A DNA stretch of 64,000 nt from a virus (IMGVR_UViG_3300028840_006907:160001-224000); one strand, 5' to 3'; counted from the first letter of the stretch, positions 800 to 48,085 are shown. Translations and numbers: made by a program. The notes: a model not told the origin generated them from the sequence alone.

Positions 800-1726
800 T
801 TACCTTTTATGTGTGAGTAATTTTACTTTTAGATTTTTAATATTTTCGTTTTTATTATCACTACTGATGATCTGTGATAATATATCGACAATACCTGGAT
901 TCTCCAGTTCCTGAACCATCATTTTACTTATCATACCATCAATAGAGATACAGCTATTGATTGTCATTTTTTTCATATTCTTGATATTATTCGCGTTGAC
1001 CACTTCAACGATGGTATTTATTTCACGTTTTATCTCTTCTTCAATGGATTCAATAAGGGTACCTATGACAAAGGTGCGCTCATCAGATCTAGGATCATGG
1101 GGATCATCTGCTATTACAAAAACAGCCTTACATTCTTTGACATTTGCTTTATGCAGAATATCCAGATCAGTAGGCATTCCCCTAATGAAAGAAATTTCAG
1201 TTTTAATATCTTCCGGAAGCTCTTCTAATTTTTCAGTTATTAGTACCATTTTACATTTAGAATATTTGGAAGTATTTTTTATTTCGTGAATGAAATATTT
1301 AATTTTCTTTTCATTGGGATATCCACAAAGGATAACATGATTTTTAAAGGCTATATCCATTAAGCCTCTCCTTTTCCTATTAATAAGATCGATTAATATA
1401 CTGGTTATAACACCGATTAAAGAGCCTATAATACCTATCCCAAGTATCATACAGGCATATGAAATGACAAACCGTCCTATAAAGGTTTTTGCATAAAAAT
1501 CCCCGTATCCTACGGTAGTCATTGTTACAATAGCCCACCAGATTGAATCCAGTAAAGAAATGTCTTGAGAGTCCCTTTCAACAAAATAGAAAGTAACTCC
1601 GAAGAATAGATTTAATACGGCAGCCAAACCTATTACGTATATTAAATCTCTTTTAAAGAGACTCCCAAAACGTAAAAATAATCTGAATATATTCATAAAT
1701 TTTATAATAGACCGTGGGAGAAACAA
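800..1726 (-). CDS. potassium channel with cytoplasmic RCK/TrkA-like domain
   Basis: Two hydrophobic helices flanking the K+ selectivity filter TTVGYGD, followed by a Rossmann-like stretch (HVILCGY) typical of RCK domains. Confidence 0.75.
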   Translation of the reverse strand: MFLPRSIIKFMNIFRLFLRFGSLFKRDLIYVIGLAAVLNLFFGVTFYFVERDSQDISLLDSIWWAIVTMTTVGYGDFYAKTFIGRFVISYACMILGIGIIGSLIGVITSILIDLINRKRRGLMDIAFKNHVILCGYPNEKKIKYFIHEIKNTSKYSKCKMVLITEKLEELPEDIKTEISFIRGMPTDLDILHKANVKECKAVFVIADDPHDPRSDERTFVIGTLIESIEEEIKREINTIVEVVNANNIKNMKKMTINSCISIDGMISKMMVQELENPGIVDILSQIISSDNKNENIKNLKVKLLTHKR

Positions 1727-4343: not shown

Positions 4344-6209
4344 TTATGACGCTTCGACTTCTTCTATGAATTCTTGCTCTGCAGGTTCTGGAACTGGTTC
4401 TGTTACCTGTTCTTCGACCTGGGGAGATTCTTTAGGTTTTGTGGAAGTCATCATATTAGACACATTCTTCACTACATTTGGAAGATTATCACCTAATCCT
4501 GCTTCTTTTAATAATTGATCTACAACAGGAGCCTGAGCGCGATATCCAAGAAGTTGATCCAATAAAGATTGAGTAGAAAAACCTCCTGCAGACATTTTTG
4601 ACCCACCGTTACCATTACTATGGCCATTGCTACCGGTCAAACCTGATACGTTGATAACTTTGAAAGCTTCAATTTTTTCAAGGGGTTTTACACTGGATTC
4701 AATTACTGCTGATATGTGTTCAATTATTTGGAGTTTTACACGCATATCAACAATGTCTTTAGAGAGCCTGTTTTCAGCTTCATTGAGTTTTTCCTGACCT
4801 TCAGCTTCGACTTCGTATTTTCTTTCATCGGCATCAGCTTGAATTTTGATAGCCTCAGCTTTGGCTTTGGCTTCAATTTTGATAGCCTCAGCACGATCTT
4901 GAGCTGCTTCTTTTTCAGCCTGTGCAAGAACTTTAATTTTGGCTGCATCTGATCCGGCTACTTCTTCAGCTCTAATAATTGTAATTTCTCTGGCACGATT
5001 AGCAATTTCTTTTTCACGAGCGGTGGTTACTTTTTCCTCTGCAGAAATAGCGAGTGCTCTAGCTTCATTTGCTTCCTGATCAGCCAAAGAGGTTTCTTTA
5101 GATTTATTAGCAACTTCAATATCTCTTTCCTGTTCAGCAAGTTTTATTGCTTTCTGTTTTTCGATGGTAGCTGACTCTACTGCTTGTTCTTTAACAATAG
5201 TAGCTGATTCAATTGCTTGTTCTTTTTCAATATTGGCTTCTTGTAAAGCTTTTTCTTTTATAATATTTGCTTCGGCAATGGCTTGTTCTTTTCTAATATT
5301 CTGTTCTTCAAGAGCTTTGGTAGTTTCGATTGTTTTCTTTTTAACTTCTTTTTCAGATTCTATCCTTGCTTCTTGGGCTATCTTATTTTGTTCAGCATTA
5401 AATTTTTCTTTTGTGGCATTTTCTTCTGCTGTCCTAGTAGCAATTTCACGTTCTTGTTCAAGTCTAGAATACTCTTTTTCTTTATTAATTTTTAAAGTCT
5501 GTTGTTCAGCTTGAAGATTTTTTGTTTCAATTTTTACTAGATTATCTCTTTCAATCTCATTACGTTCTTTTCTACGCTCTTCGATGATTCTAGTTAATGC
5601 TGTCAATCCCTCAGCATCAAAAGCATTATTCTCATTGAAGTGCTCTCTACTGGTTTGATCAAAACCTGTAAGTGACACAGTTTCAAGCTCTAAGCCATTT
5701 TTCTTAAGGTCTTCCAGAACATTGTTTTGGACTTTTTGCACAAAATCAGCACGTTGCTCATGCAGTTCTCTCATTTGCATTTGAGCAGCAACAGCTCTTA
5801 AGGCGTCAACGAATTTACCTTCAATAAGTTCACGTAGTTTCTCTGGGTCAAGAGTGCGGTCACCAAGAGTTTGAGCGGCATTTGCTATGGAATCAGCTTC
5901 TGGTTGTACCCGCATATAAAACTCTACAAGAACGTCAACTCTCATACGATCTTTTGTAATTAATGCGTCCTTTTCATTTCTTCTTACCGGTAATTTTAAA
6001 GTACTAAGTTTTACCCAGGTTATTTGATGAAGTACAGGTAATACTACTGCTCCACCTTCTTTTATAACTTTTTTCTTGCCCATACCAGTACGGACAAAAG
6101 CCATATCAGATGAAGCTTTTACGTACATCCTAGCAATAATTAATCCTATAACAATTAGTGCCACTAGGATTATACCTGCCATAATTAAAATAGGCATAAG
6201 GTTTTCCAT
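4344..6209 (-). CDS. SPFH/band-7 (flotillin-like) protein with long repetitive coiled coil
   Basis: N-terminal TM helix then SPFH-domain-like sequence (VRTGMGKKKVIKEGGAVVLPVLHQ...), long E/K/A-rich coiled coil with internal repeats (EKEQAIESATIVKEQAVESATIEKQKAI). SD AAAGGGA upstream of start. Confidence 0.7.
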   Translation of the reverse strand: MENLMPILIMAGIILVALIVIGLIIARMYVKASSDMAFVRTGMGKKKVIKEGGAVVLPVLHQITWVKLSTLKLPVRRNEKDALITKDRMRVDVLVEFYMRVQPEADSIANAAQTLGDRTLDPEKLRELIEGKFVDALRAVAAQMQMRELHEQRADFVQKVQNNVLEDLKKNGLELETVSLTGFDQTSREHFNENNAFDAEGLTALTRIIEERRKERNEIERDNLVKIETKNLQAEQQTLKINKEKEYSRLEQEREIATRTAEENATKEKFNAEQNKIAQEARIESEKEVKKKTIETTKALEEQNIRKEQAIAEANIIKEKALQEANIEKEQAIESATIVKEQAVESATIEKQKAIKLAEQERDIEVANKSKETSLADQEANEARALAISAEEKVTTAREKEIANRAREITIIRAEEVAGSDAAKIKVLAQAEKEAAQDRAEAIKIEAKAKAEAIKIQADADERKYEVEAEGQEKLNEAENRLSKDIVDMRVKLQIIEHISAVIESSVKPLEKIEAFKVINVSGLTGSNGHSNGNGGSKMSAGGFSTQSLLDQLLGYRAQAPVVDQLLKEAGLGDNLPNVVKNVSNMMTSTKPKESPQVEEQVTEPVPEPAEQEFIEEVEAS

Positions 6210-13982: not shown

Positions 13983-14906
13983 TTAAATGCCTGTTTGTAG
14001 TCTATAACTGATTAAAACTCTTTTTTGTATTGTATTTCCATAAATTCTGTGATCGAAAGCATCTTTCCCTTTTGTCTTTACCCATAAAAAGCCGTCTTTA
14101 TATTTAACTAGTGCGAATTGGCCTTTTAATTTTTTTCCATTAAAATTGAGAATATACTTGGTATCTCCTTCGGAATAAATAAGATCGAAAGTACCTTTAT
14201 CCCAAATTTTAACTTTACCTGCACCATAACCATCTTTTATTTCACCTTCGAATTGGCCATAAGCTATGGGATGATCTTCAGTTTCAATCAGATATACTTT
14301 GTTCTTTCTGGTAGGAATTTCGCGCAGTTTATTAACGAAAGACCTGTATACTGTTCCTGGATCCTTTGATCCTTTACCTGTAGGTTCATTGGTTTGAGGT
14401 CTCTTTTTATCATAGTTTTTAAGGGATCTTTCTAGTGATTTTACGGGGAATTCAAGTCTAACATCCCAATGTTTTCCAGCTTTGTCAGCTTCATGATTAT
14501 GGATAACGAATTTACCTTTATAACCTTGTTTCATTTTTTCCAGGTCATATCCGGCTGTAATAGTTCTGACTATATGAGATTCACCATTTATGCTTCGATT
14601 TATGATTGATGCAATTTTTTTGGATAACTTTTTATATTCTTCTGCGAAGGCATCAAATTTTTGAATAGCTTTTTTGATCTCATATTCTTTTACACCAGAA
14701 AGTGCTATTACAATTTGAGAGTCTTTTCGGTTAATGGTAAAACCGTGTTTACTTGCTATTTTAAAAACTCTTTTAGAAGGTTCATTATTAAAAATAAAAG
14801 CCCAATGATTTTTATACCATCCTAAACTAGCGGGTTTTTCTGGTATTAGGGCTTCAGCAGCATTTATGAGAGGTCCCTCTAAATGTATATGAGCTATTTT
14901 ATCCAT
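13983..14906 (-). CDS. protein with LigD-type 3'-phosphoesterase (LigD_N/PE) domain
   Basis: C-terminal half matches the LigD PE signature: FVIHNHEADKAGKHWDVRLE ... EDHPIAYGQFEGEIKDGYGAGKVKIWDKG. Confidence 0.65.
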   Translation of the reverse strand: MDKIAHIHLEGPLINAAEALIPEKPASLGWYKNHWAFIFNNEPSKRVFKIASKHGFTINRKDSQIVIALSGVKEYEIKKAIQKFDAFAEEYKKLSKKIASIINRSINGESHIVRTITAGYDLEKMKQGYKGKFVIHNHEADKAGKHWDVRLEFPVKSLERSLKNYDKKRPQTNEPTGKGSKDPGTVYRSFVNKLREIPTRKNKVYLIETEDHPIAYGQFEGEIKDGYGAGKVKIWDKGTFDLIYSEGDTKYILNFNGKKLKGQFALVKYKDGFLWVKTKGKDAFDHRIYGNTIQKRVLISYRLQTGI

Positions 14907-17013: not shown

Positions 17014-18534
17014 TTATGAATAGTTTTTTCTCCCTACAATGGTGAAGGAATTCTTTTCTTGATTATAATTTGAGTACATGATAATTAAATTATTCCCCAT
17101 ATCTTTTTTAACTTCATCAAAGAATTGTGGTACTCCACCCATCATCATATGAACGATAAAATATCCTCCAGGTCGTATAAGGCCCTTACAATTTTCATAA
17201 ACAGGTTTATTCTGTGGACTAAATCCATGTGGTCCTAGATAAAGTACAAATGGAAAACTCTCTCTTTTAAATTCGGTTCCAAGATCGTCTATATCTGGTT
17301 TAGCGAATTTATTGGTATCAACTGTAATAACATTATGATGTTTATAATAACCGGAAAAGAAACAAAGTCCTTTATCAGCAGAGAGCATATATTTGTCTAC
17401 TTCGGATAAGTCGGGAGTTATTAACATTTCTTTCATGTAATTAAAATGTTGCCCAGTGAATTTGATTTTTAAATGATCAATTGCCTGTAAAACGTCCTCA
17501 GGTCTCACCTGAGTGAAGCAAGGACTAGGGTGGCCTTTGACACAAGTTCTGAAATCATGCTTGTAGCAGGGGCTACAAACCACACTAGGATCCAATCCTA
17601 TAGCATTTTTAAAGTATCTCATTCTTACTTCACTTGGAAATGGCCCATAAAGTCCCACTAATGGTTTATCTAGTGCCCCAGCTACTTGTACCATGAATGT
17701 GTCAGGAGAGATCACCATATCGAATCTTGTGGCTAATATCATAACTTGTCTAACACTGTAGTTGGTGGCTAAATAGACATTATTATTGCCTCCTTTGAAA
17801 TAACTTCCTATTACGTTATGTTGTGGCATTCCTATTAGCACAATTTTAACTTTGTTCTCTCTTGCAAGTATATCAATGATAACTTTCATTTTTTCTTTAG
17901 GAAAATTACGTAATGGAGCAGAAGTTTCCATTTGGATTCCGATAACATATTCTTCGGATTTAATCCCTATAATTGCAAGTTCTTTTTCAAGCCAATCCAT
18001 TTCTTCTTTTACATAAAAGAGTTGTGGTTTTTTGTCCTCAGGAGGAAGATGGATGCTATCAATACTGAAATAACTAAAAAACATATCTACAGCGTGAGTT
18101 TTCTTTGATTGCTCACTAGAAGATTCTATGATACCTTGGAACATGAGATGGTAATCGACTTCTTCCAATAACTGAGCATCAAAAGGCATATCATAGAGTC
18201 CGTCTATTTCCGGAACGTTTTCAAGTGATTGCTTACATCCTGAAGCTACCCGTATGAAAGAAGTAGGATATTTTTTCTTAAGGTATCGGAGAACTGGACT
18301 AAGAAATAAGATATCACCAATACCACCAGTTCTCCAGCACATTAATTTTTTATTGGTTAAATCCTCACCTTTATATGGTCTGTATATGGTTTCAATAGGA
18401 TAAGACATTCCTATATTTTGAGGAAATAAATTACGGTATTGCCCTTCGATGTCTTCAGCCATAACATAACTATGATTGGCTTCAAGAGTTTTATCAGCAT
18501 GGGTAAATGTTTCAGATATTTCAACTTTTCTCAT
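17014..18534 (-). CDS. glycosyltransferase family 9 (heptosyltransferase-like) with C-terminal extension
   Basis: GGIGDILF motif near N-terminus and C-terminal GT9 block DMVISPDTFMVQVAGALDKPLVGLYGPF...CSPC; about 100 extra C-terminal residues (LIRPGGYFIV) of methyltransferase-like character. Confidence 0.65.
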   Translation of the reverse strand: MRKVEISETFTHADKTLEANHSYVMAEDIEGQYRNLFPQNIGMSYPIETIYRPYKGEDLTNKKLMCWRTGGIGDILFLSPVLRYLKKKYPTSFIRVASGCKQSLENVPEIDGLYDMPFDAQLLEEVDYHLMFQGIIESSSEQSKKTHAVDMFFSYFSIDSIHLPPEDKKPQLFYVKEEMDWLEKELAIIGIKSEEYVIGIQMETSAPLRNFPKEKMKVIIDILARENKVKIVLIGMPQHNVIGSYFKGGNNNVYLATNYSVRQVMILATRFDMVISPDTFMVQVAGALDKPLVGLYGPFPSEVRMRYFKNAIGLDPSVVCSPCYKHDFRTCVKGHPSPCFTQVRPEDVLQAIDHLKIKFTGQHFNYMKEMLITPDLSEVDKYMLSADKGLCFFSGYYKHHNVITVDTNKFAKPDIDDLGTEFKRESFPFVLYLGPHGFSPQNKPVYENCKGLIRPGGYFIVHMMMGGVPQFFDEVKKDMGNNLIIMYSNYNQEKNSFTIVGRKNYS

Positions 18535-18769: not shown

Positions 18770-19723
18770 TTAGAAGCTCAGTACTCTCACCTGGCATGGT
18801 GCCTCCTTTTCAAGTTGATATAATTTGTGATATAACAATTTTTCTTTTTCAGAAATTATTGAAGGTATTTTTATTTTAATAATTGCTTTAAAGTCCCCGA
18901 CTTCTTTTTTGTATGTTATTCCTTTGTTTTTGAATTCTATTTTCTGCCCGTATTGTGTCCCAGGAGGGATTTTTATGTTCACAGTTTTTTTGAAAACTTT
19001 AAGATTAAACGAATCTCCAAGTATTGCTTGAATAGGGCTAATGGTTATTTTTCCAATAATATCAAGGCCATTTACATAGTATCTGGGATCTTCTTTAATA
19101 ATTAGACTTACAATTAAATCGCCAGGAGATCCCCCAGGAATACAATTGCCAAGTTTAGGTATTCTTATGATTTCTAAAAGTGGGTTAAGGGTTATTGTAT
19201 GCTGAATTATCTCAGGCTGGAGAGCAGTTCCATTACATATCTTACATTGATCTCCTTCAGGAATTCTTCCCATACCTTTGCAATATGTACATTTCTTTTT
19301 AGATCCTAGTATCAGTGATAATCCCTGTAAGCCAGTGCCATTACAGTATACACATTTTTTTAATAGCCTCTCTGCTGAACCTGTGCCCGAGCAATCTTTG
19401 CATGGCCCTTTTCTTTTAATTACAATTAATTTATTTATACTTTGAATTAGGTCCATTCTGGTCACGTTTATAGAGACTTTTAAATTGCTTCCTTGTTTGA
19501 AACTTCTTTTCTTTACGAATTGGTTGTCATATTTTTTTCTTTTATTCTCATCTTTTAAAACTTCATAGGCATCTGTGGCTTCTCTGAATTTTTCTTCAGC
19601 AATTTTATCATCAGGGTTTTTGTCAGGATGATACTTTATAGCCAACTTTCGATAAGCGACTTTAATCTCTATATCTGTAGCATCTTCTGGTATATTTAAG
19701 ATCTTATAATAGTTCTTATTCAT
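18770..19723 (-). CDS. dnaJ: DnaJ/Hsp40-type co-chaperone
   Basis: J domain with HPD motif (KYHPDKNP) and four CxxCxGxG zinc-finger repeats. Confidence 0.85.
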   Translation of the reverse strand: MNKNYYKILNIPEDATDIEIKVAYRKLAIKYHPDKNPDDKIAEEKFREATDAYEVLKDENKRKKYDNQFVKKRSFKQGSNLKVSINVTRMDLIQSINKLIVIKRKGPCKDCSGTGSAERLLKKCVYCNGTGLQGLSLILGSKKKCTYCKGMGRIPEGDQCKICNGTALQPEIIQHTITLNPLLEIIRIPKLGNCIPGGSPGDLIVSLIIKEDPRYYVNGLDIIGKITISPIQAILGDSFNLKVFKKTVNIKIPPGTQYGQKIEFKNKGITYKKEVGDFKAIIKIKIPSIISEKEKLLYHKLYQLEKEAPCQVRVLSF

Positions 19724-38805: not shown

Positions 38806-39086
38806 TTTTGTCTATTCCTTTAAAATTGATAGAAGCTATCCTATATAATGATATGGAACTAACAAGGGTTTTCGATAAGTAAAAAATAAAAAAAGTTTTT
38901 AAGTCTAATGGTTTGAGTAAGTTACAAGAGGTAATTTTAGGTTTAAAAAAACCATGTTTTTTGATAAGAATATATAATATAGAGTATAAATAATCCTGTT
39001 TTTATGATTTACTAAAAAAGTAATTAATATAAATAGCTATATGAATATGTATATATGAATATAGTTATTTATTTTTTCCTGAATAA

Positions 39087-39149
39087 GGAAAAGTAAAATA
39101 AAAAAGAACAGAAAAATAGTAGTAGAAGAAGAGAGGAATGAGGATTAAA
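39087..39149. repeat. 63-bp direct repeat, copy 1
   Basis: Identical to 40188..40250. Confidence 0.9.
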
Positions 39150-40160: not shown

Positions 40161-40187
40161 ATGTATCAATAAATAAAAAAATCAATA

Positions 40188-40250
40188 GGAAAAGTAAAAT
40201 AAAAAAGAACAGAAAAATAGTAGTAGAAGAAGAGAGGAATGAGGATTAAA
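40188..40250. repeat. 63-bp direct repeat, copy 2
   Basis: Identical to 39087..39149, spacing 1101 bp. Confidence 0.9.
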
Positions 40251-44002: not shown

Positions 44003-47000
44003 ATGGAGATCGAGATGCTATCACCTTTTGGGAAAATTGTCTGGGAAGATCGATACGCGCTGAAGGATGAATATGGGAAATTAATTGAAAAAAATATTTT
44101 AGAAACATTTCGTAGAGTTGCTACAGCTATTGCTTCTAAGGAAAAAGACTCTAAGTTTTGGGGTGACAAATTTTATAAGATTATGGCAGACCAATCTTTC
44201 TGTCCAGCCGGTAGAGTCCTAGCCCATTCAGGTACACATTATTCTCAACTTCTCAATTGTTTTGTTCTCCCATTCCAGGATGACAGTCTGGAAGAGATTA
44301 TGAACACTGGTAAAAACATGGCTATTGTTCAAAAATATGGTGGGGGCTGTATTGGAGGTGAGAGTAATATTCTTACTAATAAAGGTGTTGTACCATTAAA
44401 AGAAATTGTTGAAGGAAATGATAAAGATCTTAAAGTACTATCTTTTAATTCTGATAATAATGAGATGGAATACTGTGATATTTTAGAAAGACATACAAAT
44501 AATTTATCTGGGGATCGTGTATTCGAAATTGAGTTCGATAATACAAAAGGCGGTGTTGCATCAAGAATAAGAGCTAGCGATTGGCATCCCTTTTTTGTTT
44601 TTGATGGAGTAAAGATAATCCAAGTACGTGCTGATGAGTTAAAACCTGGGATGGCTGTAATAGGCTCAACTGATTTAGGGGTAAATTTAAAGTATGATTC
44701 TATGGGTTGGTTATTAGGTTATATTGCTGGTGACGGTTCGATTGATACTAATAATGGGGAAGATGTACGTGTTAGGGTAGTAGATGACAGTGAAGAGTGT
44801 GTTAAACGTGCAGCAGGAATATTTAATACATCTTATAAACCTTCTAGTGATAAACGTTATAAAGTAAAAATGTGGGCTTGTGAGGTTTATGGAGATGAAG
44901 CTGGGATGGTAAAGGATGAGTTTGGGGGGTATCAAACTAGTGGTACAAAACATGTCCCGAATTCTATCTGGGAAAGTTCTCCTGAAAGAAGACTTTCTTT
45001 TTTAGTTGGGCATATTGATGCAGATGGCTGGTTTAATAAAGAGAAAAAAAGATTTGAAGTTTTTACTGTTAGTAATGAATTGGCAAAAGAATTAATAGCC
45101 TTAGCTGGTGGTCTTGGTATTCGGGCTTCACTACGTTTTAGAAAATCACGTAAAGAAAATGAGCAAGATGGTTGGGAAGTTAGGTATAGTAGCTCTCAAT
45201 TTTCGATTGATTTAATTGTTAATATTAGTGCAAAACATAACCCACTCAATGCTGGATGGGTTATGGGTACTATAAATTTATCTCATGAATGGAAAGATCA
45301 TTTAAAAAGCGTAGGTATTAATGTTTATACAAATAAAGCATGGAGAAAGTCAATTGAAATTGATGGTGTAAAAAGATCATTAGTTTATTGGTTACAGCAT
45401 GGTAAAGCTTCAAGAGAAACTGCTGCTTCTATTCTTAGAGTGTGTGGTGAAGAAAAGATAGCAAGTGCTGTTTTATCTAGCCAAATAGTACTCTCTTCAA
45501 AGGCTACAGGAATTTCAGAAACATTATATGATCTCACTATTGCAAAAAATCAAACATATATGGCATCAGACCCAACTACAGGGGCTTATGTTGTTGTGCA
45601 TAATACAGGATTTAATTTCAGTAGGCTCAGACCATCAGGTTCATATATAAAAGGTGTCAATGGTCGTAGTAGTGGACCCATCGGATTTATTAGCATGATG
45701 TCAACTATCTCAGAAATAATTGAACAAGGCGGGACCCGCAGGGGCGCGTCAATAGGGCTTCTTGAGGCATGGCACCCTGATTTATGGGAGTTTGTTTCTT
45801 ATAAAACTGAACATAATTGGGAATGTCTTCGAGAATTTATTGATGTGAATGATTACGATAAATGGGAATCATTTAAATATGAAAATTTATATAAATGGCA
45901 AATGTTCAATGTCTCTGTAGGAATTACTGATGATTTCTTAGAATCTGTTAAAAACAATAAGGAATGGGTATTTAATTGGAAAGGGGAAGAGTGGGAACTT
46001 TATACCGTTATTTTTAAGAAATATATAAGTGAAGGTAATTACAAAGAATTAACATTTGAAGTTACAGCTAACAATGATCCTACTGCTATATGGAAAGTAA
46101 GAAAGAAAATACCTTATCCTACTGGTAGTGATATATTTGAAGTTACATCAAAAAGAAAAGTAAAAGCTTCCGAGATCTGGGATAGACTGTGTTATAATGC
46201 CTGGGCTGATGGATGTCCGGGCATTATCAATTTAAGTACTGCTCGTAGGATGCATAATTTAGAATATGCCTTCCCTATAGAAGCTACTAATCCTTGTTTT
46301 ACTGGAGATTGTAAATTGGATACTATCAATGGTCCTATGACTTTTGAAAGTCTTGAGGATAAAGAAATTGATCTTAAAACTCCATATGGTTCTATTGAAA
46401 AAGGTAGAATTTGGAAAACAGGGGTAAAATCTACTATCAGATTAAAATTTAATGATGGTAGTTCAATAACGGTTACTCCCGATCAACTATTTTTGTGTCA
46501 TAAAGGAAAAGAGATACGGGCTAAGGATTGTTTAAATAAATGTTTAAATACTTCGGATATACCGTTAAGTGTAGTTTCAATAGAGGATAATGGTGAACAA
46601 GAGGTCTATGATTTTTCAATCCCATGTAATTGGGGTATAGTTAATGGAATAGTGGCTCATAATTGTGGGGAGCAACCTTTAGGGGGATTTAGTTCTTGCA
46701 ATTTGTCAAGCATACTCCTTCCTAATTTTGTTATAGAGGATACCAAATCAGTTGATTGGGATAAACTTAAAGAGGTTGTTCATACTGCTGTCAGATTTTC
46801 GGATAATGTTGTAGATAATTGTGAATTTCCGATTCCGGAAATTAAAGATAAAGCATATCAGGAAAGACGTGTCGGACTAGGTACTATGGGAGTTCATGAC
46901 ATGTTAATCAAAATGGGACTAGATTATGATAGTGATGTGGGTCGTGATGCTGTGGAAGAGGTATTAAGATTTATTCGGGATGAAGCTTATAAAGCATCAA

Positions 47001-48085
47001 TTAAAATTGCGGAAGAGAAGGGGTCTTTTCCAGCCTTTAAAAAGAAAGAAATTTTAAAGAGTGGGTTTATAAAAACACTTCCACCAGAGATCGTAAAATT
47101 GATTGGGAAAAATGGTATTAGAAATAGTGCCCTTTTATCCCAGGCACCCACAGGATCGATCTCAGCGTTAAATAACGTTTCATCTGGGTGTGAACCATGG
47201 TATTCATTATCCTTCCAAAGAAACACTCGTTTGGGTTCCTATGAAGATGGTTGTCCAACTTATATTGAATGGAAGAAAAATAACCCCGAAGCTCCCATAC
47301 CATCCTATTTTAAAACAGCTCCAGAAATAAGCCCTACAGATCACGTAAAAATGCTTATTCTTTTTAGTAAATACATTGATTCAGCGGTGAGTAAGACAGT
47401 TAATCTCCCAAATCATACAACAGTAGATACAGTTAAAGAGACATTTATTTATGCTATGGAAAATGGTGTAAAAGGTCTGACTGTTTTTCGGGATGGTTCT
47501 AAAGAAGGTGTTTTAGTAAATAAACAAAACAAGAAAAAAATTGAAGAAATAATTCCATATACAGATAAAGAAGATTGTTATGAAAATGTAATGTCTCCTA
47601 AAAAGCGGGGAGATAAAACAACTGGTTCAACATATCGTATTCATATGCAAAGTCATAATTTATATGTTACAGTTAATCGAAATAGAGATGGTGATTTAGT
47701 AGAGCTTTTTACTACAGTTGGAGAGAGTAAAAAACCTAATGCACATCATACTAGTGGTGTTGAAGATTCCTGGGCAGAGGGTCTTGGTAAAATAATTAGT
47801 CTAGCTCTGCGTGCAGGAGTGAAACCTAGTTCAATAATTCGGAATTTAAAAAATATTCCATCAGATAAACCAGTATTTGTTACTATCGGTGATAATGAAA
47901 ATTCTGAGCATATACCTTCTCCACCTCATGCTATTGCTAGGGTAATAGAAGATGAGATGAGTAATGGTGAAGAAGAAATTAATATTCAAGGAGGTTATTG
48001 CTCAGAATGTGGCTCAACAAATACTAAAAAGAAGAGTCCCACTTGTTACGAGTGTTTTGACTGTGGCTACGTAGCTTGTGGTTAA
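44003..48085 (+). CDS. nrdJ: class II (adenosylcobalamin-type) ribonucleotide reductase interrupted by two inteins
   Basis: Extein motifs QKYGGG|TGFNFSRLRPSG, GGTRRGA, TNP|CGEQPLGG; C-terminal Cys cluster; 1360 aa before splicing, about 818 aa after. Confidence 0.85.
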   Translation: MEIEMLSPFGKIVWEDRYALKDEYGKLIEKNILETFRRVATAIASKEKDSKFWGDKFYKIMADQSFCPAGRVLAHSGTHYSQLLNCFVLPFQDDSLEEIMNTGKNMAIVQKYGGGCIGGESNILTNKGVVPLKEIVEGNDKDLKVLSFNSDNNEMEYCDILERHTNNLSGDRVFEIEFDNTKGGVASRIRASDWHPFFVFDGVKIIQVRADELKPGMAVIGSTDLGVNLKYDSMGWLLGYIAGDGSIDTNNGEDVRVRVVDDSEECVKRAAGIFNTSYKPSSDKRYKVKMWACEVYGDEAGMVKDEFGGYQTSGTKHVPNSIWESSPERRLSFLVGHIDADGWFNKEKKRFEVFTVSNELAKELIALAGGLGIRASLRFRKSRKENEQDGWEVRYSSSQFSIDLIVNISAKHNPLNAGWVMGTINLSHEWKDHLKSVGINVYTNKAWRKSIEIDGVKRSLVYWLQHGKASRETAASILRVCGEEKIASAVLSSQIVLSSKATGISETLYDLTIAKNQTYMASDPTTGAYVVVHNTGFNFSRLRPSGSYIKGVNGRSSGPIGFISMMSTISEIIEQGGTRRGASIGLLEAWHPDLWEFVSYKTEHNWECLREFIDVNDYDKWESFKYENLYKWQMFNVSVGITDDFLESVKNNKEWVFNWKGEEWELYTVIFKKYISEGNYKELTFEVTANNDPTAIWKVRKKIPYPTGSDIFEVTSKRKVKASEIWDRLCYNAWADGCPGIINLSTARRMHNLEYAFPIEATNPCFTGDCKLDTINGPMTFESLEDKEIDLKTPYGSIEKGRIWKTGVKSTIRLKFNDGSSITVTPDQLFLCHKGKEIRAKDCLNKCLNTSDIPLSVVSIEDNGEQEVYDFSIPCNWGIVNGIVAHNCGEQPLGGFSSCNLSSILLPNFVIEDTKSVDWDKLKEVVHTAVRFSDNVVDNCEFPIPEIKDKAYQERRVGLGTMGVHDMLIKMGLDYDSDVGRDAVEEVLRFIRDEAYKASIKIAEEKGSFPAFKKKEILKSGFIKTLPPEIVKLIGKNGIRNSALLSQAPTGSISALNNVSSGCEPWYSLSFQRNTRLGSYEDGCPTYIEWKKNNPEAPIPSYFKTAPEISPTDHVKMLILFSKYIDSAVSKTVNLPNHTTVDTVKETFIYAMENGVKGLTVFRDGSKEGVLVNKQNKKKIEEIIPYTDKEDCYENVMSPKKRGDKTTGSTYRIHMQSHNLYVTVNRNRDGDLVELFTTVGESKKPNAHHTSGVEDSWAEGLGKIISLALRAGVKPSSIIRNLKNIPSDKPVFVTIGDNENSEHIPSPPHAIARVIEDEMSNGEEEINIQGGYCSECGSTNTKKKSPTCYECFDCGYVACG
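44348..45604 (+). mobile_element. intein 1 (419 aa) with LAGLIDADG homing-endonuclease domain
   Basis: Starts with Cys after QKYGGG, ends VVHN before Thr; two LAGLIDADG motifs (LGYIAGDGSID, LVGHIDADGWF). Confidence 0.8.
46295..46663 (+). mobile_element. intein 2 (123-aa mini-intein, no endonuclease domain)
   Basis: Inserted between TNP and CGEQ of the active-site motif; starts CFTGD, ends VAHN before Cys. Confidence 0.75.

Follow-up and report, generated by a model that had tools for sequence, protein, structure and literature searches.

The stretch of viral DNA described here, IMGVR_UViG_3300028840_006907:160001-224000, comprises 64,000 nucleotides (nt) and is referred to in its full length as the window. 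It carries on the plus strand a frame of 4083 nt that is open throughout its 1360 codons and that holds nrdJ, the gene of an adenosylcobalamin-type (class II) ribonucleotide reductase (RNR), with two additional in-frame segments (Table 1). The NrdJ precursor very probably carries two canonical class 1 inteins, both at long-known RNR intein sites, namely a full-length element of 419 amino acids (aa) with LAGLIDADG motifs (intein 1) and a mini-intein of 123 aa placed directly before the codon of the catalytic cysteine (intein 2). The start codon at 44003 was chosen over the JGI metagenome gene call at 44015, because the closest relatives begin with MEIGML or MGIDML (MxIxM N-termini). An earlier sequence-only reading had proposed a class II RNR frame at 44003-48085, an intein with two LAGLIDADG motifs between QKYGGG and TGFNFSRLRP, and a mini-intein between TNP and CGEQ; the frame agrees with all profile and alignment evidence given below, and the boundaries proposed for both elements proved to be exact.

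By its domains, the product of the gene is a class II (B12-type) RNR, NrdJ. Pfam profiles recover the RNR all-alpha domain (E = 2.7e-16), the barrel Ribonuc_red_lgC (E = 3.9e-101) and the C-terminal TSCPD domain, and the NCBIfam equivalog TIGR02504 (NrdJ_Z, adenosylcobalamin-dependent RNR) scores 504.6 bits against a cut-off of 399.95 with the inteins still present. Deletion of both inteins from the 1360-aa translation leaves a spliced NrdJ of 818 aa that aligns to Thermotoga maritima NrdJ (1xje) with an E-value of 3.2e-85, the alignment being unbroken across both junctions (kygggtgfnfsrlrp over kvgggvgsnfselrp at the first and ieatnpcgeqplggfsscnlssi over instnpcgeiglsdyeacnlgsi at the second). 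The +1 Cys of the mini-intein falls on C322 of the T. maritima enzyme (Tm), the thiyl-radical residue (position counted along the 1xje alignment), as the sequence-only reading had stated, and its further claim that removing both inteins restores the class II motifs is borne out by the same continuous alignment. After splicing the catalytic set is complete, with equivalents of Tm C134, N320, C322, E324 and C333, of which C134 and C333 form the redox pair. A protein identical to the window NrdJ (P0001) occurs on metagenomic contigs of 388,651 and 469,617 bp (JGI 3300017963). A search of 5.8 billion proteins returned this identical entry and 66 alleles at 57-81% extein identity; clade counts out of 67 refer to these 66 relatives and the window's own allele.

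Intein 1 possesses all the splice residues of a class 1 intein, namely C116, SDWH, H533-N534 and the +1 residue T535. The Pfam profile Intein_splicing (PF14890) gives 41.6 bits on the excised element and 55.7 within the precursor, with a cut-off of 35.8 (E = 6.6e-15), and TIGR01445 gives 25.1 alone and 37.2 within the precursor, with a cut-off of 24.5. The endonuclease domains are recognized by LAGLIDADG_3 (PF14528; 47.0 against a cut-off of 22.5, E = 5.9e-11) and by Hom_end (PF05204; 36.6 bits against 21.1, E = 9.8e-8). The best solved relative is PI-PfuI (1dq3), the intein endonuclease of the Pyrococcus furiosus RNR, with an E-value of 7e-17; in this alignment SPWHPFFV is the counterpart of block B SDWHPFFV, and the correspondence extends to block F and to the two LAGLIDADG motifs. 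Cys1, S..WH in block B, the Asp of each LAGLIDADG motif and the terminal His-Asn are invariant in the 16 full-length members of the intein 1 family, as is the block F core LxDL (LYDL except in one member with LFDL), and every one of these family-invariant splicing and endonuclease residues is present in the window copy. The insertion site of intein 1 (site a) is empty in 52 of the 67 clade alleles, all of which read K.GGG.G uninterrupted. The +1 residue is Thr in all 15 alleles with an intein at this site; Val, Ile, Cys or Ser are also found in the alleles without one. Thr is presumably needed only as the splicing nucleophile, which would explain why the residue varies in the intein-free alleles alone.

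Intein 2 has C765, the block F Asp (VYD), H886-N887 and the +1 residue C888. Both elements show the four blocks A, B, F and G, the only departure being the Gln that replaces the block B His in the mini-intein. Several points weigh against regarding this segment, and the precursor as a whole, as a working intein system. The block B His is missing from intein 2, whose scores fall just below the cut-offs of PF14890 (29.6 against 35.8) and TIGR01445 (24.3 against 24.5); the case for its splicing competence is one of conserved residues; and splicing itself, cleavage by the endonuclease and the succession of events are predictions. Since the sequence profiles fell short of the curated cut-offs, the fold of intein 2 was modelled with AlphaFold from a nine-sequence alignment. 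The model is all-beta, with a predicted local distance difference test score (pLDDT) of 94.8 and a predicted template modelling score (pTM) of 0.86. When it was compared with the PDB by Foldseek, all 50 of the 50 matches listed were inteins or related Hint domains, with a best E-value of 2.4e-8, a template modelling score (TM-score) of up to 0.91, and gp41-1, Npu DnaB, Ssp DnaB and Npu DnaE at the top with TM-scores of 0.8-0.9. As modelled, intein 2 is a genuine mini-intein with a Hint fold. Its 123 aa, all in beta-strand, hold no endonuclease domain. A 314-aa relative in allele P0017 carries a 190-aa LAGLIDADG insert at the position where the window mini-intein has none, and the latter is therefore a deletion derivative. 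The insertion point (site c) reads NPC[GA]E[QV] uninterrupted in all 43 alleles that have no intein there.

Table 1. Features of the nrdJ locus and its surroundings. Positions are those of the window unless a spliced position is given; a slash marks an intein junction or insertion point
Feature	Position	Strand	Sequence or remark
nrdJ precursor open reading frame (ORF), class II (adenosylcobalamin-type) RNR with two inteins	44003..48085	+	1360 aa plus stop
N-extein, aa 1-115	44003..44347	+	ends QKYGGG; Ribonuc_red_lgN; redox Cys in LNCFVLP (44252-44272)
Intein 1, full length, 419 aa (aa 116-534)	44348..45604	+	QKYGGG/CIGGES...YVVVHN/TGFNFSRLRP
Intein 1 block A	44348-44377	+	CIGGESNILT
Intein 1 block B	44570-44599	+	RASDWHPFFV; SDWH = aa 192-195
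Intein 1 LAGLIDADG motif 1	44711-44740	+	LLGYIAGDGS
Intein 1 LAGLIDADG motif 2	44999-45031	+	FLVGHIDADGW
Intein 1 block F	45524-45565	+	LYDLTIAKNQTYMA
Intein 1 block G		+	VVVHN, then +1 Thr (45605-45607)
Middle extein, aa 535-764	45605..46294	+	TGFNFSRLRP to EATNP
Intein 2, mini-intein, 123 aa (aa 765-887)	46295..46663	+	EATNP/CFTGDC...GIVAHN/CGEQ
Intein 2 block A	46295-46324	+	CFTGDCKLDT
Intein 2 block B	46466-46495	+	ITVTPDQLFL; Gln (CAA, 46484-46486) at expected His
Intein 2 block F	46604-46642	+	VYDFSIPCNWGIV
Intein 2 block G		+	ends AHN, then +1 Cys (46664-46666)
C-extein, aa 888-1360	46664..48082	+	opens with thiyl-radical Cys codon (46664-46666) in CGEQPLGG
C-extein, redox partner Cys	46691-46711	+	in SSCNLSS; then remaining barrel
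C-extein, 3' part		+	TSCPD domain, then C-terminal Cys-rich ribbon (47999-48079)
Thioredoxin gene, 101 aa	48124..48429	+	TCSPC active site; Pfam Thioredoxin; directly downstream of nrdJ
K+ channel	800-1726	-	
Flotillin/SPFH	4344-6209	-	
LigD phosphoesterase	13983-14906	-	
GT9 glycosyltransferase	17014-18534	-	
DnaJ	18770-19723	-	
Site a	spliced position 115		GGG/TG
Site b	spliced position 158		EQGG/[ST]RRGA
Site c	spliced position 345		NP/CGE
Site d	spliced position 509		APTG/[ST]
Site e	spliced position 589		SK/T

In the splicing model proposed for the precursor, each intein would begin with an N-S acyl shift at its Cys1, followed by transesterification to the +1 residue, which is Thr for intein 1 and, for intein 2, the Cys that is to become the thiyl-radical residue. 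The terminal Asn would then cyclise, and a further acyl shift would restore the peptide bond. Ligation would join GGG to TGF and TNP to CGEQ and yield the 818-aa enzyme with its full catalytic set, and reductase activity would be impossible before the second splice. Since the endonuclease of intein 1 is apparently intact, homing into intein-free alleles should be possible. That of intein 2 is lost, so that inheritance or co-conversion would be the only routes left to it.

The alleles of the clade differ widely in their intein content. The sequence-only reading had suggested a comparison with intein-free alleles in relatives, and such alleles exist: 23 of the 67 carry no intein, the remainder carry one to four, and any allele without a given intein reads seamlessly across that junction (K.GGG.G or NPC[GA]E). 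Large insertions mapped onto the spliced sequence fall at five sites only (a to e), and clustering yields eight intein families, of which three are in competition at site c and two at site b, with one each at sites a, d and e. One of the site-c families ends in Gln or Asn (...YINNLQ / ...FTNGKN) and has matches to the Hint-type Pfam families PF07591 and PF01079. On a neighbour-joining extein tree the distribution of inteins is patchy, and sister alleles differ, as do P0003 (sites a and c) and P0032 (none); in P0079 and P0087-P0089, which are distant alleles, sites a and c are both occupied. The window subclade has five members at 78-81% extein identity. The window allele P0001 has a full-length intein at site a and a Gln-type mini-intein at site c; P0005 has a mini-intein at site a and a Gln-type one at site c; P0013 has a full-length intein at site b and a Gln-type mini-intein at site c; P0006 has mini-inteins at sites a and b and one of another family at site c; and P0015 has mini-inteins at sites a and b, a full-length intein of another family at site c and a full-length one at site d, the rest of sites a to d being empty in each case.

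The family of intein 1 bears traces of both degradation and spread. Its splicing domain is 56-69% identical to that of site-a mini-inteins of 154-229 aa. These differ in their deletion end points, and the endonuclease was therefore lost several times; end points that differ in this way are the signature of the homing cycle. In addition, intein 1 is 45-54% identical to inteins residing in exteins that are only 39-41% identical, one of the hosts being a Chloroflexi metagenome-assembled genome. This comparison points to horizontal transfer between RNR lineages. The clade is one of constant gain, degradation and loss of inteins.

From the presence of two inteins of different type in one gene, the sequence-only reading had concluded that this replicon was repeatedly invaded. 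A recent and independent arrival of both inteins, with the replicon as an invasion hotspot, would be in keeping with the two unrelated families in a single gene, with an endonuclease in intein 1 that looks intact, and with a turnover in the clade so rapid that even sister alleles differ. However, the closest four alleles share the site-a family (P0005, P0006 and P0015) or the Gln type at site c (P0005 and P0013), and the guanine-cytosine (GC) content of intein 1 (34.4%) and intein 2 (31.7%) is close to that of the gene (35.9% in the extein; 32.8% in the window). Moreover, no further intein was found in the 64-kb window when its six-frame ORFs of at least 40 aa were scanned with a splicing-domain hidden Markov model (HMM) built from 25 mini-inteins and by phmmer, the queries being 66 full-length inteins; the RNR ORF alone was matched. 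The clamp-loader ORF gave a single match of E = 0.0065, which was taken as noise. A recent double invasion is therefore considered unlikely, and the earlier conclusion was over-read. The part of it that stands is that two unrelated inteins imply two independent invasions somewhere in the ancestry of the gene; the data do not place them in this replicon. Since both families are common to the closest alleles, the inteins were most likely inherited with the gene, and such inheritance fits the data at least as well as a recent invasion of this genome.

Intein 2 has TPDQ in its block B, with Gln64 in place of the near-universal His. In HMMER alignments to solved inteins (among them 4o1r, 1mi8 and 7qil), Gln64 falls on that His in three, namely Npu DnaB (TGNH), Ssp DnaB (TANH, His73) and a DnaE intein (TKDH). 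No intein residue is said to be more conserved than this His, on which many inteins depend, and the natural inteins without it, the Tko CDC21-1 group, have been described as 'a very small subset' (PMC6333167). The motif TP[DNE]Q is common to the relatives in P0005, P0013 and P0017, whose identity to the window mini-intein is 45-64%. C1, the block B Thr, Gln64, the block F Asp, His-Asn and the +1 Cys are invariant in these four core Gln-type members; among 125 inteins excised from RNR homologues, all but these four have the block B His. A profile of the four, when run against 1.84 billion representative proteins, gave 515 matches. The best 150 of these matches and the four seeds contain 160 domains with a readable block B, of which 153 have TxxH and 7 have TxxQ, and all seven TxxQ inteins are located at NP/CGE in RNRs. 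A rough distance tree does not place the three further TxxQ inteins next to the core four, and the His-to-Gln change may therefore have arisen more than once. The core four open with CF[TS]G[DE]C and have an invariant Cys at position 6 (46295-46312 in the window), where other site-c inteins carry Thr. The P0017 intein (aa 347-660) is the only full-length relative among them; its second motif, LRGLYSANGS, has Asn at the catalytic acidic position, so that its endonuclease is probably decaying.

If the mini-intein with its Gln in block B, or intein 1, no longer spliced, the reductase would be dead and the gene in decay. The decayed second LAGLIDADG motif of the full-length P0017 relative is in line with this, as is the missing endonuclease of the mini-intein, which leaves host need as the only force to maintain it. 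Such decay is nevertheless very unlikely, given that the 4083-nt frame is intact and the catalytic residues of the exteins are all preserved, that the remaining splice residues and Gln64 are invariant in four members of such low identity, that three more TxxQ inteins occupy the same site in other RNRs, and that natural His-less inteins that splice exist (PMC6333167). As for the Gln-for-His inteins at the RNR radical-Cys site as a group (7 of about 160 related), the chances that they still splice are put at even. If they do, the N-terminal scissile bond would be activated in an alternative manner in Gln-type inteins, perhaps with help from the fixed Pro at -1 or from the Cys6 that is invariant in the four core members. 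The role of Pro at -1 as compensator is speculation, and proline is unmentioned in the paper on block B compensation; for Cys6, a part in redox control or in compensation for the absent His is conceivable. A disulfide switch between Cys1 and Cys6 was set aside as a candidate, the two being separated by five positions close to the N-terminus. A natural His-less intein of 123 aa would also be of possible use in mechanism studies and engineering. The alternative that the reductase natively contains both segments, as lineage-specific insertion domains, can be rejected with near certainty, since the sole hint of it, the scores of the mini-intein slightly below the Pfam and TIGRFAM cut-offs, stands against 23 close alleles that are without both segments and seamless at the junctions, the Cys start and His-Asn end of both segments followed by Thr or Cys, the Hint fold, the homology of intein 1 to PI-PfuI, and the catalytic N-P-C-G-E loop that one of the segments would split.

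RNR inteins, including those at the radical Cys and several in one gene, have been documented since the 1990s, and multi-intein RNRs are known from Pyrococcus and Trichodesmium. Liu et al. reportedly described in 2003 the RIR1 of Trichodesmium erythraeum with four inteins. The Pyrococcus/Thermococcus RNR (with RIR1-1, which is PI-PfuI, and RIR1-2) is likewise of class II type and has a large LAGLIDADG intein after GGG and a second intein later in the protein. Residues 55-658 of the window precursor align as one stretch (extein-intein-extein) to the intein-containing NCBIfam model NF006207, which suggests that the insertion site of intein 1 is that of the Thermococcales enzymes; the mini-intein weakly matches (E = 0.012) the presumed start of the second intein in the same model. 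On the model alignment, the Pyrococcus insertion sites are presumed to be strictly identical to those in the window. Intein 1, however, is no more than a distant relative of PI-PfuI, identity between the exteins is about 40-45%, and the second intein of the window differs in being a 123-aa mini-intein without an endonuclease. Trichodesmium-type multi-intein RNRs also have non-allelic inteins at conserved catalytic motifs, and P0015 has four in the window clade, whereas two are present in the window gene, in which no introns were seen.

In one survey RNR, with 211 inteins, ranks second among bacterial proteins in intein number (PMC4760082), and the most frequent RNR intein site has been described as lying directly N-terminal to the thiyl-radical Cys (PMC2677866). 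Phage RNRs with inteins and introns have also been documented (PMC3653736). Dassa et al. have described RNR inteins at NP/C[GAS]E, which have the same insertion point as intein 2 and use the catalytic Cys as +1 nucleophile (Dassa et al., 2009; PMC2677866). About 130 of 152 profile matches to the mini-intein (from the 1.84 billion representative proteins) are at NP/C.E; the window copy and six others differ from these inteins by their block B Gln, and the window copy, with its 123 aa, is among the shortest members. Inteins of the Tko CDC21-1 type (PMC6333167) are also natural inteins without the block B His and have a presumed compensating mechanism, but their host protein, lineage and replacing residue are different, the window intein having Gln in block B and Pro rather than Leu at -1. 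The NrdJ-1 intein (8ubs) is again a NrdJ intein beside the radical Cys, and its structure is close to the mini-intein model; unlike the contiguous window intein, which stands before the Cys, it is split and lies one residue further C-terminal (PC/S). Because RNR is intein-rich and the radical-Cys site is the most frequent RNR intein site, the finding is an ordinary one, which adds new members to known intein alleles of a known host gene.

The thioredoxin encoded next to nrdJ is the likely reductant of the RNR. The TSCPD domain and Cys-rich ribbon at the C-terminus of NrdJ and the adjoining thioredoxin resemble a module of enzyme and reductant. Genes for replication and recombination in the window include those of a sliding clamp, clamp-loader subunits, an NAD-dependent ligase, a RecD-like helicase, a UvsX-like recombinase and a flap endonuclease, and the window mixes such phage-like genes with cell-like ones, namely those of the flotillin, K+ channel, DnaJ, GT9 glycosyltransferase and LigD phosphoesterase of Table 1. 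Genes lie on the minus strand from 1 to 38500 and on the plus strand from 40550 to 64000. A perfect, purine-rich direct repeat of 64 nt (39086-39149 and 40187-40250, copies 1101 nt apart) sits in the ORF-poor divergent region between them (about 38.5-40.5 kb), in which the genes change direction and the GC skew changes sign; possible interpretations of the repeat are an origin, a duplication of promoter leaders and the termini of a small cassette. The replicon is likely, but unproven, to be a huge phage of about 470 kb, and its gene content resembles that of huge phages. A megablast of 20 kb against the INPHARED phages gave no match, and no relative was confirmed when IMG/VR and the GTDB representative genomes were scanned for patterns. 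A tblastn search with the clamp-loader protein returned distant matches only, one of them a 485-kb uncultured phage. No tRNA was found and no structural gene was seen in the 64 kb of the window.

Overall, the locus is to be annotated as one spliced NrdJ of 818 aa, neither as a 1360-aa oddity nor as a fragmented gene. The clade to which it belongs preserves the intein homing cycle in dense natural detail, within a gene pool that seems to be that of huge phages. The Gln-for-His variant might be the sole feature likely to draw specialist testing, in that the mini-intein, with TPDQ in block B, departs in a small and testable way from the rule that is most conserved in intein chemistry.

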